DNA of 63,960 bases, the filler included, from Ionaspis alba (taxonomy: Eukaryota), in the NCBI GenBank assembly GCA_964255285.1. It is 9 parts of 9 records of this genome, joined end to end, with 100 filler letters (N's around TTAATTAATTAA, not from the genome) between each part and the next. Parts side by side here need not be neighbours in the genome. Positions count along the whole stretch, not along the records: positions 14,294 to 21,339 come from CAXUUL010000863.1; 8 more parts are not named here. One strand, written 5' to 3'. Positions within the stretch are counted from its first letter, which is position 1. Every line of letters starts with the position of its first letter. A program made the translations under genes and the position numbers. Below the pieces are notes generated by a model, which saw only the letters and a list, made by a program, of their open reading frames with translations, made no database searches and was not told the origin of the DNA. Shown here in pieces: positions 7,048 to 21,439 of this stretch.

Positions 7048-7147
7048 NNNNNNNNNNNNNNNNNNNNNNNNNNNNNNNNNNNNNNNNNNNNTTAATTAAT
7101 TAANNNNNNNNNNNNNNNNNNNNNNNNNNNNNNNNNNNNNNNNNNNN
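7048..7147. other. Artificial scaffold spacer (N44-TTAATTAATTAA-N44); identical spacers at 14194-14293, 21340-21439, 28476-28575, 35607-35706, 42730-42829, 49831-49930, 56907-57006
   Basis: The same palindromic six-frame stop linker sits between N runs each time. Intervening segments never increase in length along the window. Confidence 0.98.
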
Positions 7148-14193: not shown

Positions 14194-14398
14194 NNNNNNN
14201 NNNNNNNNNNNNNNNNNNNNNNNNNNNNNNNNNNNNNTTAATTAATTAANNNNNNNNNNNNNNNNNNNNNNNNNNNNNNNNNNNNNNNNNNNNTCAAGCC
14301 ATGCAACCACGACCAAGACGCCCAGACAAAATATCCCTCAAAATGCACAAATCGAAAAGTCATGGATATCATATCACGACAACTTTCTTCCAAACGCC

Positions 14399-15543
14399 CT
14401 ACTGATATGCCGGAATCCCATACCCACTACCCATCGGCTGTTGCTGCTGCTGCTGCTGCATTTGATGCGCCTGCTGTTGCTGCTGTTGCATCTGCTGCGC
14501 CTGGGCCTGGACCTGGGCCTGCTGTCTCAACTGGCCCAAATCCGCAAACCAGGGATGCTTCAGGGCATCCTTAGCACTAACCCTCATCTCCGGTCTCAGC
14601 TGTAGCATTCTGCCCAGTAGATCCAAACCCTGCTGATCGATCTGCGGCAAGATCAAGCGCAAGTCCTGGGTAGCGTAGATATGGAAGTTATTTTTATACT
14701 CGGGAAATTGGGAAATGCCCGGCCAGGAGCGCTCGGAGGGGGTGCCCATGAGACGGAAGATTTTCTGGAGCTCGTCTTCGTTGGTTGTGCCGGGGAAGAG
14801 CGGGCGGCCGGTGTACATTTCTGCCATGATGCATCCCGCGGACCAGATGTCGATGCTGGTGTTGTAGGTGCGGCTGCCGAGGAGGACGTCAGGGGCTCGG
14901 TACCAGAGGGTGACGACTTCGTTGGAGAAAGTGTTGACAGGAATGCCGAAAGCGCGGGCGAGACCGAAGTCGGCGAGTTTGAGCTGACCTTTGTTATTGA
15001 TGAGTAAGTTCTGCGGTTTCAGATCACGGTGCAGGACGCGGTTTTCGTGGCAAAAGGCAATACCCTGGAGGAGCTGGTACATGAAGGATTTGATGGTGAT
15101 GTAGTCGAGTTGACCGCGGTCTCCACGGGAGTCCATGTATTTCTTGAGGTCTTTGTCCATGTATTCGAAGACGAGCATGAGTTTGTTTTCGGTGTGGATG
15201 ACGTCGTGGAGGGAGACGATGTTTTCGTGTTTGAGCTCTTTCATGAGGGAGATCTCGCGGATGGCGGTGGAGGGTGTGCCTTCTTCCGAGTCGAGGTGGA
15301 TCTCTTTGAGGGCAACTAGTTCGCCAGTTTGGCGATTGCGGCCTTTGAAGACCTAGAGGGACGCGAAGTTAGTTAGGTGGATGTGGGGCTTGGTATTTGT
15401 AGGGGGTGTGGAAATTTACGGTTGCATAAGTGCCTTCTCCTAGCTGGGGTAAACGTTAGCATCCGTCTCCACTAAAAAGATATATGGCGCAATTAAAATA
15501 CCTTCTCGAGCTGCTGGAACGAGCTGGGATGTTTTCTATCCAT
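14399..15543 (-). CDS. PHO85: Pho85/PhoA cyclin-dependent kinase; exons 15543-15502, 15443-15420, 15352-14399; poly-Gln C-terminal tail
   Basis: [69 protein letters not shown]. Confidence 0.96.
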
Positions 15544-16764
15544 TGTATTTCCTCCGACGAAGAGCTCTCCCGCCGGTGTCTGTACAACTTTTGCTTGAGT
15601 TTCAGAGTATCTTTTCCACTTCGCTTCTGGTTCCTTCTGTTTCGGTGGCTGGTCGAGGAGCGATGGACTATCTGTGCTATTTATGACAGCTTCGACAAGC
15701 TCGGCAAACGTGTTCGGGGAGAATCGTAGTGTTTCTTCCGGTGGCTGTAGATGAGGAGGTTGTTCAGGTCCGTAGAGAGGCTGTTGTATCTGCTGTATCT
15801 GCTGTTGCTGCTGTTGTAGCTGTTGCTGCTGCTGTTGAAAAAAAGGGCCGTAGACTGGGTCTTGGAATTGGTGCTGTTGCTGAGTAGTATTGCCAATAGC
15901 TTGAGAAGTTGAAGGCTGCAGTGGCGGGTTTGGCTGAAAGTAAGGTCCAGGGGCTACAGTCTGCTGATTACACTGTAGTGGATACTGTGATGGCTGTAGC
16001 CCTGCAGGAATTGGGACAAGATAGCCGAGCGTCGGTTTTTGTTGCGATTGTTGCTGCCCAGGAGCGGGAGCAAGGTATCCCAAGATTGGCTGCAGCTGCT
16101 GTTGCGGTGGTGGTGGTGGTGTTCGGGCGATAGGTGAGATGGGTCTGGAATAGGAACACTGTGGTGGTGGTGTTCGGGCGATGGGTGAGATGGGCCTGGA
16201 ATAGGAATCCTGCGGTAGCGGTTGAAATGGCTCAACGGGTTCGGAGCCGATCCCTAGATATTGGACTTCGTCAAAGAGCTCCTGCCATAAAATATCTGGG
16301 TCTACAGTCAGACTCTGCTCCCACTGTGGCTCCTGTTCCTGAGCAGCGAGAGTTTCTTGTAGTGCTTGTTGTGCTTGTTTTTCCTTGGCGGTAGGCTTCT
16401 TGAGGAGGACTTCGTGTTTGTACCGATACTCCCGAATAAATCTCTCGAGTTCTGGGTTCTCTATTTGCTTCTGGGTCTGATCACCAAAGCTGAAGAACCG
16501 ATTCCACCCTTGCTGCTGCTGCTGGTGGGTAGAGTCTCCGGTGATCGGATATTGCGTTTGTTGTTGTTGCTGCTGAGAATGAGGAGGGATACAAGGACCG
16601 AAAAGTGGGTTATGCTGGGATTGTTGCAGCGGCTGGTTTCCTAAGTCCGATTGACGGTAGCCTACCGGGACACCAAGTTCGTGTCGAGGAACGATGATGC
16701 GTGACTGTTGATCGAGACTCTGACTTGAGGAAGGTTTAGCTTGCGACTTGGAAGAGTCTCGTGA
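15544..16764 (-). CDS. Putative 407-codon Gln/Pro-rich N-terminal extension in frame with PHO85, with no in-frame ATG
   Basis: No stop between TAA at 16767-16765 and the PHO85 ATG at 15543. A 51-nt-period duplication differs only at synonymous sites in this frame. Confidence 0.6.
16111..16207 (-). repeat. Two-copy 51-nt-period direct repeat encoding SYSRPISPIARTPPP
   Basis: Copies at 16111-16156 and 16162-16207. Differences are CCT/CCC (Pro) and AGA/AGG (Arg). Confidence 0.9.
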
Positions 16765-18687
16765 TTATTGGAAATAGAGAACCTTGGATGTGGATACTGT
16801 TGCTGGCTAGGTGGTGGTGGAGGTCCATGGTGTGGATCCATTTTCGCTTTGGCGCGGGGCACTGTTTCGTCTTAGGCGGGCGCTTCGCCTTAGCGAAGGG
16901 CCGGCCGAGCGCGTTTGATTGGATTGAAAGCTTAGAATAATCTGATTGGCTAATATATTGGAGCTGGTAAATTCGATGCTGATGGGGCTTGTTGCTACGT
17001 GCGTAGAGATGTTCCGTGGTAGAGATGTCAGTTGAAGCTGAAAATAGAGACGATAGTTAGGATTCGACATCATGGGAGATTGAGTAGGAAAAGTAATGCT
17101 CTGGTTTCCCATGGCTACCTCGAAGATGGCCGTTCCTGCCATCTGGTTCGATTGTCAGTTGCATGGATCTATCCACAGTACGGTAGGAAACAACGTTCCG
17201 CTGTGAATGATCAAAGTGAAAATAATGATTGTACGAGTAAAATTGCCCCTCATTAATCGCAAGTCCCCCGGTACCATGACTAACCACCGTGTCCCGGTCT
17301 ATGTACTTTGTGCAAATGACCCCACTTCTTGGTTGGGTACGTACTACTGCGTTACCGAGGGCAGGGGATAGCGGGACGTACCTCCGCTCTCTCCAAGACT
17401 CTCTCTATCAACGTCCTTGACCGGCTTCAATCAGTAGCCGGGTCCCGGGTTGGTTGTGCATACCACCTACCATCGAGATGTTGCACAAACATGGGGCGGG
17501 TCCAGTGCGTTCCATGGACTTTATACCTTGTAAGGCGACGACAGCCTACATCTCGGTAATACGTAACCCTGCGTTGTCAAAAGACGCATGTCATCGACCA
17601 CGAAGTCGATGTCTACCGGAGACCGCCGATTTGATCGCTATCTCACCTTCACTTCATCTCATTACGCACCGAATGCAACGTTTCGAGAATAGAACAGGCG
17701 AGATCGACGCCCCCGGCGATGACGGCAACGTCAATGCATGCCCGTGTGGGTGCAACTCTTGTCGATGGCGTGGTCCCTCGACTCGGGCATTCTGTGGATG
17801 ATCGAGATGGTGGCGGCGGTGATTGGTGTTGAGGGTGTGCTTGGGAGAGAGGGCTGAGCTAGCAAAGCTTCTAGAATGAATAGAACACTTTAGAACGAAT
17901 TTCTCTTCCACGCTAGAAGAAAAAAATCCCGATGACGACACGCAGGGATGCGGCGGCACCAAGAAGGGAATAGCGGGGAGGAAATTCTTGCAATCATGCT
18001 TTTCGAAGGATTCGGTTGTTGGGGTGGAAAACACTGCTGGGCTGAGACCAATAACCGCCCTTGGGAAGACCCTGCCGAAGCCCCTCCCTGGGGGAAATGC
18101 CTTCACATGAGTGCCGGACCCCTAAACCATCCAAACCCACCTGGAACTATCAAATTGCTCAACGAGTACCGACCGCCTAATCCCACTGGGGCAACAACGC
18201 AGGCGAGAAACGCACCTGGATCGCTCGGGCCACTCGACACCANNNNNNNNNNNNNNNNNNNNNNNNNNNNNNNNNNNNNNNNNNNNNNNNNNNNNNNNNN
18301 NNNNNNNNNNNNNNNNNNNNNNNNNNNNNNNNNNNNNNNNNNACCGTACCTTGTGGGTATGCAAGCCACGGACGTGGTTTTGGCATGTCGTTGAAAGACA
18401 CCCATGTCCATGGGCGCAGCCAGATGAACGCCATCGCCTCTGACAGTAGCAACCTTTAGGGCTCGGTACCATGCCTTCGCTCTCAAGGTTCGTCAACCCT
18501 GGCAGTTGTAGATTTTCAGTCGCGAAGGTTTCTGCTATCTATCTGTGTTCCTGCATACTTAATTGGAAACCATGTCGTATCATCTATCATGCTTGCAATC
18601 TGAGCGTTTTATCTCTCGCATTCATATCACCAGTCCTTTCCCCGGTGGTATGTCGGACCTTCTCGCTCTGTTGCCATCCCAAGAAGC

Positions 18688-20584
18688 ATGCTGTCTTCCA
18701 CCAAGAGAGCCTGTGACGCCTGCCATCGACGAAAGGTCCGTCTCCTGCCGTTGTTACACGCTCTGCGCATTACTCCTAGATAGTACCTGAAGCTAATCTT
18801 CTTCCTCACGCCGGAATTAGGTCCGTTGCAATGGATCCCACCCGTGTCATAACTGTACCCAAGCTTCCCTCGCCTGTACTTACAACAAGCCCCCCCAGAA
18901 GAAGGGTCCCAAAGGCAGTCGGGCCAAAGTCATCTCGGAGCTCCGGAAGAGTCAGGAGATCACGGGCGTCTCTGTGTCGCCAACCCTCCAAAATGGCATT
19001 GCTGCATCCGAATCGCCGTTGTCCTCTCCGGTGTCATGGAAGACCCCGAATCTACTCTCTTCCGAGCTCATCGAGAACTGTTTGACGTATTTCTTCGAGA
19101 ATTTGTACCCTACCATGCCCATCTTACACCGAACTCAGACCCAACAATGCGTTCTAGAGATGGAATTCTCGGTGGAGGCCTACTGCCTCATTTGCTCGCT
19201 ATGCGCTTTCATCGTCATTCACCCAGGTCTTCACACTGTCGCGCAACGAGGTAAAGCAGCCAATTCTTTCCATCCCCATGGACAACGTCTGCTCGAGGAG
19301 GCGATACATGTACGAAAGTGTTATGACCACGTTGAGAATCACTCCGTGCTCGCAGTCACTACCTCGTTTTTCTTGTCGGCAACCTACGCAGGAATGACAA
19401 AACACAATGCCGCCTGGTTTCATCTCCGCGAAGCAATCACCTTGGCCCAGCTATTGGGTATGCAGAGTGAGAGCAGCTACACTCCGCTTGACCTAGAAAG
19501 TACGATGAGACGGCGAATGTTCTGGATGCTGTTTATGTATGAGAGGTAATGCTCCATCGTTTCGCCCTATGTGATCTCATCAGTTCGCTGAACTTCGAAC
19601 AGAGGATACGCGCTGCACCAACATCGCCCTTTGAGCCTCCAACCAACAATCGAGTATCCGGTCCCCGAAGAAGAAGAAGCCAGTGAAATCGTTGCTATCA
19701 CAGGGTTTCGATATCTCTTGATTCTTTTCAGCGTCGTGGACAATGAATTTGCCAGAGTATGGAATACAAACCGACAAGATTGTGCACCAGGCTGGCTTAC
19801 GGAGGTTCAACATCGGCTGACGGACGCATTTCCTCAAGAGTTAGGATGCACAGATATTCAAGAGACGGATCTTCGAATTACACAACAGTGGCTTCGTTCG
19901 ATCGTTTGGCAGCTATCCACGGCCAGCGGATGTCTTTCTTCTTCGACACCCGACCTTTTCATGAGTTTTCGGTATCCCATCGAAATCGCGAGAGAAGTCG
20001 TCGCTATTGCTACCAAATCCTCACACCACGCGATGGAAATACATGGAGTTGGCCTGGTAATATCCTCTATCCTATTAAAGAAGAGCATCACTGATCCATG
20101 AATCTAGATCGAGAAATTGTTCGACATCGCTTGCAGCCTTGTTGACGTTATGTCCTGCGTCCCAATTCAACCTGCCACGTCCGAACCAGGGCCTCAAGAA
20201 TACCTCACCCATTTTCTTCATTTGATATCTACTCTACGATCCGGAGAAACCAGATATGTCGGTCTCTTGCAGGCCAAGATACGAGACACCCTTCCAGGAA
20301 TGGCTTCATCGTTCGCAATACCACCTTCGTTAACCCATTCCGTTGACCATTCACATTCCACTTCTTACAGCTCCGGGTCTTCCAACTCAACTCCATACAA
20401 CAGCCCCCCACTACTGATAACTAGTCCACATCGATTTCCAGTGATTCACGATGGTATACACGACCACCACGCACTTCCAGACATTACGAGCGTTCCAACA
20501 ACCATGAGTCCTGCAAGCATGCTCCCCGTGTCCGGACCACCGGGATATCCAATGTCACTTACGAACGGTTATTTCCAGGATTGA
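18688..20584 (+). CDS. Zn(II)2Cys6 transcription factor with fungal TF middle homology region (MalR/SUC1-like), three introns; an extra 5' exon is possible
   Basis: KRACDACHRRK|VRCNGSHPCHNCTQASLACTY...KKGPKG; FF..LYPTMPILH; AWFHLREAITLAQLLGM; RRRMFWMLFMYER; MEIHGVGL|IEKLFDIA. Confidence 0.92.
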
Positions 20585-21439
20585 AACAAGCGATCGGGAC
20601 ATACTTTAGGGAATGAACATAACAATACGGGCCATTTTTCTCTTCTTTTCTTTCCTCTAGGATGAGCAGACGCCGGAGTTTCTTCAACCATTGTTGTTTT
20701 TTGGGTACTACGCATTTATTCCCACGGTTCTGCATTTGAAAACGCTTGGTCGCACGGTCCCTCCAACCCATTCCCAGAAATCTTGTTGCATACCCTCATT
20801 TGAACTTTTCGCATCACGATGATACCCATTAGCAAGTACAAATGTACATATGTACATATCCATGCATGAGCAAATACTTTGAGCATTGACCCGCACTGAA
20901 TTCACATGCACGAGAACCGGTTCTAACTTACGCTATCCATATGTGATCTTCCCTTGAGAAACAGATGTTCGGCCCACACTACAAATTCGGAGTTGGAATC
21001 TATGGTCGTGGTTAGAGCTGGATATGGTAGAGAGGGATGTGACTTTGTGTCACCGGGCATGAGCTGCGATCTGTCGATAAATCCAGATTCATCTACCAAG
21101 AACATCATGAAGCCTAACATATGCTGGATCCCCTTAACACAATATACCAGAAATAGCTAATCGAGAGAATACAGTGGGTACAACTCGATCCATAATAAGC
21201 AACGTCCAAGTATTTCGCTAACCCTCTCGCTCGTCCTCGAAACCGCATCTCTACGAGATCAGATGAGTCATCATACCGTTTCTTTAGGCAAAATTCCTCG
21301 TTAGGATGGACATTTTCGAAAGCGACAGATGTGCATGCTNNNNNNNNNNNNNNNNNNNNNNNNNNNNNNNNNNNNNNNNNNNNTTAATTAATTAANNNNN
21401 NNNNNNNNNNNNNNNNNNNNNNNNNNNNNNNNNNNNNNN

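Follow-up and report, generated by a model that had tools for sequence, protein, structure and literature searches.

The Pho85/PhoA kinases tie nutrient state to fungal development, and their gene models usually begin at the short start. In Aspergillus nidulans, PHOA is reportedly made in a long (M1) and a short (M47) form, which Bussink and Osmani are said to have ascribed in 1998 to probable alternative pre-mRNA splicing, and its N-terminal extension is said to measure ~46 residues. Here, a locus of this kind is described from the window, a 63,960-nucleotide (nt) stretch of Ionaspis alba DNA (assembly GCA_964255285.1, filler included) in which the piece at positions 14294-21339 holds a gene for a PhoA/Pho85-type cyclin-dependent kinase (CDK). 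Like PHOA, which makes two forms from one gene, it encodes a Pho85-type PSTAIRE kinase with an in-frame extension above the conserved start. In contrast to PHOA, the extension comprises 407 residues rather than the reported ~46, and there is no in-frame ATG in 16764-15544; it also differs from the extensions of other orthologues in that their conserved motif is not detectable here by profile. The reading favoured below, to which we give a probability of roughly one half, is that a PhoA-type kinase with a 407-residue, ATG-purged extension would yield two proteins from one transcription unit.

Two further systems are relevant for comparison. Non-AUG-initiated N-terminal extensions occur in fungi, with Neurospora crassa cpc-1 as an example (PMC5487733), and the Ionaspis locus shares with the extensions described there an open frame, the lack of an in-frame AUG and a long leader above the annotated AUG. 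Unlike them, it has no strong near-cognate site in the window, whereas such a site is present in 7 of 19 relatives. A term search of the text and 10 supplementary files of that paper (mBio 2017), as available, did not find Pho85, mdk-1 or NCU07580. In yeast Pif1, dual isoforms arise by leaky scanning between two in-frame AUGs, according to a preprint (bioRxiv 10.1101/2024.01.21.576553). The relatives of the Ionaspis gene resemble Pif1 as presented there, with a weaker upstream and a strong downstream start and no AUG between them; in Ionaspis alba itself, in contrast, the starts would lie ~1.2-1.3 kb apart, and the candidate upstream ATG has a strong context and is not in frame.

Among annotated proteins, P0002 and P0003 (both gene predictions from public metagenome assemblies) have kinases 90% and 96% identical to that of the window, with low-complexity extensions of 288 and 249 residues that run into MDRR(H/P)PNSFQQLER. 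P0002 (622 amino acids, aa) has Met only at positions 1 and 289, and P0003 (578 aa) only at 1, 6, 7 and 250, leaving Met-free stretches of 287 and 242 residues with no internal Met. P0002 and P0003 have extensions related to one another (29% identity, E 1e-15), and neither extension is detectably related to that of the window. Long/short PhoA pairs are a known kind, as are N-terminal extensions with a non-AUG start. What appears to be new is the 407-codon size, the Gln/Pro-rich disorder, the all-frame purge of ATG across orthologues, and the interchange of AUG, ACG and CTG in relatives. Literature searches found no description of an ATG purge across the PhoA extension, and nothing on AUG/ACG/CTG interchange at the Pho85/PhoA long start.

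Evidence that the extension is coding

The frame of kinase exon 1 is open on the minus strand from 16764 down to the ATG at 15543. The extension (15544-16764) thus spans 407 codons with neither a stop nor a Met, and is closed upstream by a TAA at 16765-16767, where no change is listed in a public contig of run X2 that spans it. A preliminary description of this DNA had reported the same 1221 nt open and Met-free back to this TAA, and translation agrees; the motifs that it listed (LGYLAPAP/LGYLVPIP, PLFGP/PVYGP/PLYGP, ELERFIREYRYKHEVLLKK and LWQELFDEVQYL) are all present. Over the same interval the other two minus-strand frames contain 8 and 10 stops, and Markov simulation gave a mean of 12.2 stops per frame and a probability of ~5e-6 for none. 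Codon log-odds, trained on 4678 codons from recognisable genes of the window, were +65.1 in the kinase frame versus -72.4 and -91.9 in the other frames, and were above 0 in nearly all 30-codon windows from ~16740 to 15525.

Public contigs from two runs (X1 and X2) provided 11 within-species substitutions in the open frame, of which eight are synonymous (P 0.001-0.004 under a null synonymous fraction of 0.25-0.30). Without two poly-Gln sites, at which contigs of other organisms pile up, six of nine are synonymous (P 0.01-0.025). Additionally, a 12-nt deletion allele in a Gln run and a 51-nt (17-codon) tandem duplication at 16110-16207, in which SYSRPISPIARTPPP occurs twice, both preserve the frame, although triplet slippage is natural in CAG/CAA runs. 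Third-position C is less frequent in the extension than in the kinase (0.22 versus 0.47), which fits a young or weakly expressed segment. Codon statistics, stops and variants together show that the extension is protein-coding and shares the reading frame of the PhoA/Pho85-type CDK, as the preliminary description had proposed.

The deletion allele belongs to a second allele seen in run X1 at 15798 and 15740-15955, with the 12-nt poly-Gln deletion and several substitutions at about one third of the depth. It appears that the X1 sample contains two haplotypes or strains.

Depletion of ATG in the window and in orthologous loci

Between 17070 and 15543, minus-strand ATGs occur only at 16841, 16828 and 16288, and only the last of these lies within the open frame, where it starts an out-of-frame ORF (open reading frame) of five codons (MAGAL*, 16271-16288) with T at -3. 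This single ATG in all frames of the extension compares with 13.2 expected from real base composition, 7.5 under a first-order Markov null (P 0.005), 6.6-6.7 after codon shuffling (P 0.003-0.005), and 5.15 after synonymous-codon permutation (P 0.010). Among the 64 trinucleotides, ATG is the most depleted (observed/expected 0.13). The preliminary description had also counted one ATG, at 16288; its expectation of ~19 holds for uniform composition only, the other nulls giving 5.15-13.2. Its view that codon bias accounts for only part of the lack is upheld by the codon-preserving nulls and by 13 other long ORFs of the window taken as controls. In these controls, out-of-frame ATGs numbered 139 versus 131.7 expected, and Met content was 2.26% (range 0.94-4.1%), giving a probability for no Met in 407 codons of 9e-5 at the mean rate and 0.02 at the lowest control rate of 0.94%. 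The depletion of ATG is real, of moderate size when the window is taken alone, and does not simply follow from the use of Gln/Pro codons.

When the kinase exon was used to scan metagenomes, 36 loci were obtained, of which 19 were kept for counts. Those set aside were L027-L036 (at most 37% identity, or fragments), L021, L022, L023 and L026 (no first exon found), L010 (frame reaching the contig end), L020 (76% identity, with three open codons and no Met upstream; off-pattern and maybe spliced differently), and L016 (81% identity, with an MNFQQLEK start and no extension). From its start and lack of extension, L016 is probably a PhoB-type paralogue; its metagenome record shares an accession series with L004.

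All 19 kept loci have an open frame leading up to the canonical Met, 19-288 codons long (407 here), and in neither these loci nor the window does an in-frame ATG intervene between that Met and the first Met or the opening of the frame. Counting all frames over the 20 loci, the extensions contain 5 ATGs versus 32.7 expected by codon shuffling (Poisson P 2e-9). In the kinase exons of the window and 18 loci, used as a control, out-of-frame ATGs numbered 70 versus 86.6 expected, and scaling the number expected in the extensions by this control ratio of 0.81 leaves P 4e-7. The four long extensions, those of the window (1 ATG versus 6.6 expected), L002 (0 versus 4.35), L004 (0 versus 3.0) and L007 (0 versus 4.9), have no detectable similarity to one another, and each is purged of ATG by itself. 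Start contexts differ as well: 18 of 20 loci carry a purine at -3 of the canonical ATG, compared with three of nine, never A, for the upstream in-frame ATG (Fisher P 0.004). Weak upstream and strong canonical contexts are the pattern predicted by leaky scanning.

These counts show, at the level of sequence, that the extension is purged of ATG in all three frames and that the equivalent region of orthologues has undergone the same purge. The preliminary description had proposed looking for an open frame and AUG avoidance upstream of the kinase in related fungi, and both are seen in the 19 loci. Its suggestion that the lack of AUG lets scanning ribosomes reach the short start fits the same ATG-free in-frame region. 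We are fairly confident that the extension is a real, translated, lineage-specific arm and that its lack of ATG is selected and family-wide.

When the kinase was used to search for longer proteins, many annotated Pho85 orthologues, 578-1920 aa in length, were recovered. Several are fusions to a neighbouring gene (P0006, P0008, P0015, P0016, P0034 and others, carrying a membrane protein, sirtuin or peptidase M28), and others have an N-terminal extension only, which leads directly into the conserved kinase start. It is plausible that gene models fuse Pho85 to its upstream neighbour because predictors seek an ATG above the open, ATG-free extension.

Candidate long-form starts in relatives

Relatives of the Ionaspis gene fall into two main start classes. 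Seven loci (L001, L003-L006, L018 and L025) have an in-frame ATG 38-155 codons above the canonical start, and in the four relatives of highest identity (L004, L001, L006 and L025) the extension begins at such an ATG. The start consensus of filamentous fungi is CAMM-ATG-GC, which the strict context used for the near-cognate search, YA[ACG][ACG]-NNN-GC, matches. Seven other loci have exactly one near-cognate codon each in this context, at a homologous place 61-83 codons above the canonical ATG. It is ACG in L008 (position 3148), L011 (3151), L012 (598), L013 (3123), L014 (3074) and L019 (2095), and CTG in L017, 61 codons above the canonical ATG, where the peptide reads FTLAS and others have FTTAS or KTAQ. 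The Thr codon at the site is ACG in six of the six ACG loci, whereas ACG makes up 24% of Thr codons in their kinase exons. No strict-context near-cognate site was found in any of the seven ATG-type loci.

In the ACG relatives, the nearest upstream ATG lies 66-204 nt before the ACG, and L012 and L013 additionally have a far-upstream in-frame ATG, 169 and 104 codons up. Neither start class could be assigned to five of the 19 loci (L002, L007, L009, L015 and L024). Good comparative evidence indicates that initiation of the Pho85/PhoA extension would use ACG or CTG in some lineages and AUG in others. L009 also carries an intron of the form GTAAGT ... CTGAC ... AG at ~340-416, in the extension and right after a conserved WDPKYTSR; introns within the extension thus do exist in this kinase family.

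Candidate long-form starts in Ionaspis alba

In the window, the nearest ATGs above the open frame, 16841 and 16828, occupy the two frames other than that of the extension. The ATG at 16839-16841 (gcgaaaATGG) precedes the frame opening by 77 nt and is offset from the extension by one frame. The 229 nt above it are free of ATG, where 3.2 would be expected; this stretch (16842-17069) has CCAAT boxes at ~16949 and ~16920 and is probably promoter and 5' leader. Just above it, seven ATGs fall in 210 nt (17277-17070). The 16841 frame reads MDPHHGPPPPPSQQQYPHP, is Pro/Gln-rich as the extension is, and stops at 16664-16662 after 59 codons.

An intron joining the 16841 frame to the extension must measure 3n+2 nt. 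GT/GC-AG pairs that restore the frame number 320, and 42 of them are GT-AG pairs of 40-199 nt. The natural candidates share an AAG acceptor at 16724 and begin at 16797 (16797-16724, 74 nt, donor GTATCC, 1.3 bits) or 16782 (16782-16724, 59 nt, donor GTTCTC, -0.3 bits). As a reference, homology places eight introns in the window; their donors score 5.4-7.7 bits (GTTAGT, GTAAGC, GTATGT, GTGAGT, GTGAGG, GTGATG, GTATTT and GTAAAT), their branch points are all YTRAY, and the seven acceptors seen are YAG throughout.

Contigs of the two runs cover the region. The X1 contig (1001 nt) has no differences over 15926-16926, and the X2 contig, whose sample is a different one in the same study, aligns to 16705-16855 without gaps and with five substitutions; X1 is perhaps the source sample, and only X2 is from another. 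The preliminary description had named an assembly indel that hides an ordinary ATG-started ORF as a possible refutation, and these contigs give no sign of one. Differences between X1 and X2 are concentrated in the start region (5 of 151, versus 0 of 344 in the frame body; Fisher P 0.0025). The higher divergence fits a start region that is largely non-coding, whether the long form starts at 16841 with an intron or at a near-cognate codon. The X2 variant at 16809 is synonymous in the 16841 frame.

The start of the long form may lie at ATG 16841, followed by a short, weak and perhaps regulated intron; on the sequence features above we hold this slightly short of an even chance, and it is the leading candidate. 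The in-frame ATG starts of L004, L001, L006 and L025 also speak for it. It would parallel the splicing said to produce M1 and M47 of A. nidulans PHOA. The preliminary description had listed a weak intron last among its routes. That route gains from the strong-context ATG 16841 on which its span ends, and loses from the poor splice signals. Its suggestion of frameshifting found no backing, as no -1 slippery heptamer was seen by eye over 16764-16665 in the 16841 frame. Non-AUG initiation, its remaining route, has the ACG and CTG sites of seven relatives in its favour, but no strong-context near-cognate codon occurs near the 5' end of the frame in the window.

A likeness between the start at 16841 (ATGGATCCACAC) and that of L006 was set aside: that of 16828 (ATGGACCTCC) to L025 is equally good, and nothing is drawn from either. 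Six of the seven ATGs at 17070-17277 are in the kinase frame, and in the X2 contig the in-frame TAG at 16809-16807 reads AAG, which would leave this frame open between 17154 and the TAA at 16767; this may be chance.

Proposed mechanism and alternative explanations

In the reading that we favour, the gene encodes a PhoA-type kinase (Pho85/CDK5) from a filamentous ascomycete, in which the usual short extension would have grown to a 407-residue, Gln/Pro-rich arm with one helical block. One transcription unit would produce a short kinase (~330 aa, from ATG 15543) and a long form (~740-750 aa) that includes the extension. The long form would start at ATG 16841, joined to the open frame by a weak, maybe regulated intron ending at 16724. 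In a message that retained this intron, a 59-codon upstream ORF would precede the ATG-free run to 15543, and of the two kinases only the short form would be made. Selection would maintain the ATG-free state, with ribosomes that skip the long start scanning ~1.2 kb to 15543.

Several observations weigh against this. Donors of the 42 candidate introns reach at most 2.5 bits, compared with 5.4-7.7 bits in the reference set, and none of the 42 has a full YTRAY; the shortest end in AAG or GAG, versus YAG in seven known acceptors. The A at -3 of ATG 16841 is a misfit with simple leaky scanning past it. The X2 substitutions at 16756 and 16735 fall within the candidate intron and are third-position synonymous in the main frame, a pattern equally expected of coding sequence. 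No homologue of the extension turned up in any database searched (Pfam, word-index, HMMER, metagenome and protein atlas), and a profile of the relatives' motif (12 loci) scores the extension at -2.4 bits, a value equalled by 24% of 2000 shuffles. Finally, the orthologous loci are mutually related, so the pooled P values overstate independence.

The poor candidate introns, together with the absence of an in-frame ATG across 407 codons, lend some weight to a non-AUG start, which we regard as unlikely though well ahead of the other alternatives. The mRNA would begin downstream of ATG 16828, and a minority of ribosomes would initiate at a near-cognate codon early in the open frame to make the long form while the rest scan to 15543. 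Seven relatives have a single ACG or CTG in ideal context at the homologous place, and the spacing fits, with 16828 lying 133 nt before the ATC at 16695, compared with 66-204 nt in relatives. However, the strict context search of the window extension came back empty. Over the first 100 codons, the only near-cognate codon with a purine at -3 and G at +4 is this ATC (codon 24), the sole relaxed match; ATC is a weak initiator codon, and the in-frame ACG and CTG codons of the extension are in poor contexts. The 229 ATG-free nt above 16841 suggest in addition that this ATG lies inside the leader, and its frame is Pro/Gln-rich like the extension. Alternatively, the region may now be no more than a long ATG-free 5' leader of the short kinase, with the ORF at 16841 serving as an upstream ORF; the long form would have been lost recently by a frame-breaking change near its start, the open frame not having decayed yet. 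In favour of this, ATG 16841 is truly offset from the open frame, there is no good intron, the extension has no homologues or domains, and its third-position C is 0.22 compared with 0.47 in the kinase. Such a relic is nonetheless improbable in view of 407 stop-free codons (P ~5e-6), the synonymous nature of eight of 11 variants, and indels and duplications that preserve the frame. The offset is not of very recent origin, as the X2 contig, with 5 differences in 151 bases, shares it.

Two further explanations carry far less weight. A one-base assembly error within 16841-16764 could mask an ordinary ATG-started ORF, as the offset of ATG 16841 is of precisely one frame, with homopolymer-like CCACCACC runs close by; with no differences in a separate X1 contig build over 15926-16926 and no gaps in X2 over 16705-16855, this is very improbable. 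Marginally less credible still is a separate upstream Gln/Pro-rich gene that merely abuts the kinase gene. Public models do often fuse neighbours to Pho85 (sirtuin, peptidase M28, membrane protein), but here there is no in-frame stop before the kinase ATG, the frame passes through exon 1 and stops only inside intron 1, and 19 orthologous loci share the in-frame arrangement.

Should the long form be real, most annotations omit a second kinase isoform. The family would then be a clean natural example of sequence that is both protein code and AUG-free scanning leader, with a start codon that alternates between AUG, ACG and CTG among lineages; of the 20 loci compared, the window, at 407 codons, would have the longest leader of this kind. 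A broader generalisation, tentative and distinctly less probable than the start proposed at ATG 16841, would extend this across Pezizomycotina. The translated leader of Pho85/PhoA would be kept AUG-free in three frames by selection, yielding two CDK forms in a ratio set at initiation. The long start would be a weak-context AUG, an ideal-context ACG or CTG, or, here, perhaps a regulated weak intron after ATG 16841; and the 407-residue arm of the 1.2-kb leader could tether or concentrate the kinase.

Composition and predicted structure of the extension

The extension is rich in Gln (20%) and Pro (14%), with 2.5% Asn, and is predicted to be mostly disordered. A single-sequence AlphaFold2 model has a mean predicted local distance difference test (pLDDT) score of 49, with 258 of 407 residues below 50. 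Helices are predicted at residues 104-121, 126-140, 156-169, 306-326 (poly-Gln) and 353-361. The first three make up a charged helical block (residues 104-169, 16258-16455), for which block means of pLDDT are 51-75 in this single-sequence model. Composition and model agree with the Gln/Pro-rich, disordered-type arm with a charged helical block that the preliminary description had portrayed; a prion-like or condensate role for such an arm is possible.

Searches with the extension returned no relative. Pfam gave only a sub-threshold match to DUF6229, word-index protein searches at near and longer lengths gave no homologue, and a HMMER scan against 1.84 billion representatives gave one low-complexity match only (E 6e-4). 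A metagenome locus scan found no relative, and a protein atlas search gave no usable match. Similarly, the DNA of 17400-15544 matched the upstream regions of relatives in only three short low-complexity stretches. On these searches, the extension is taken to be lineage-specific. Most relatives share an extension peptide of the form IA.QL..[AP]...L[WF]DP[RK][YF]T. A by-eye likeness of FAELVEAVINSTDSPSLLDQPPK to the relatives' IAEQLVSPSSVLF motif was rejected by the profile test.

Gene architecture and neighbouring features

Translation places the kinase gene on the minus strand. Exon 1 (15502-15543) holds the short-isoform start, an ATG in the context aatacaATGG with A at -3, and encodes a peptide identical in 19 relatives. 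Intron 1 (15444-15501; GTATTT ... GCTAACG ... CAG) was placed by homology to annotated orthologues, as were exon 2 (15420-15443), which encodes LGEGTYAT, and intron 2 (15353-15419; GTAAAT ... CTAACTAAC ... TAG). Exon 3 (14399-15352, coding 15352-14402 and then the stop) carries the PSTAIRE motif and a Gln-rich C-terminal tail. It matches PF00069 (Pkinase) with E 4e-69 over profile positions 15-263 of 263, and is 83-96% identical to top-match proteins named 'negative regulator of the PHO system', a label given by the source databases. The PSTAIRE helix and the N-terminal glycine-loop motifs define the Pho85/PhoA family, and both the helix and the glycine-loop region (LGEGTYAT) are present in the translation. 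The Gln-rich tail occupies 14399-14540, which places low-complexity Gln runs on both sides of the catalytic domain.

Upstream of the kinase gene, past a 100-N gap, a plus-strand ORF at 18821-19546 has a fungal-specific transcription factor domain (PF04082, E 3e-9). The window consists of pieces of ~7.05 kb linked by spacers of 44 N, TTAATTAATTAA and 44 N, with some further 100-N gaps; the spacers lie at 7048-7147, 14194-14293, 21340-21439 and onward, about every 7146 bases, and neighbouring pieces are possibly non-adjacent in the genome.

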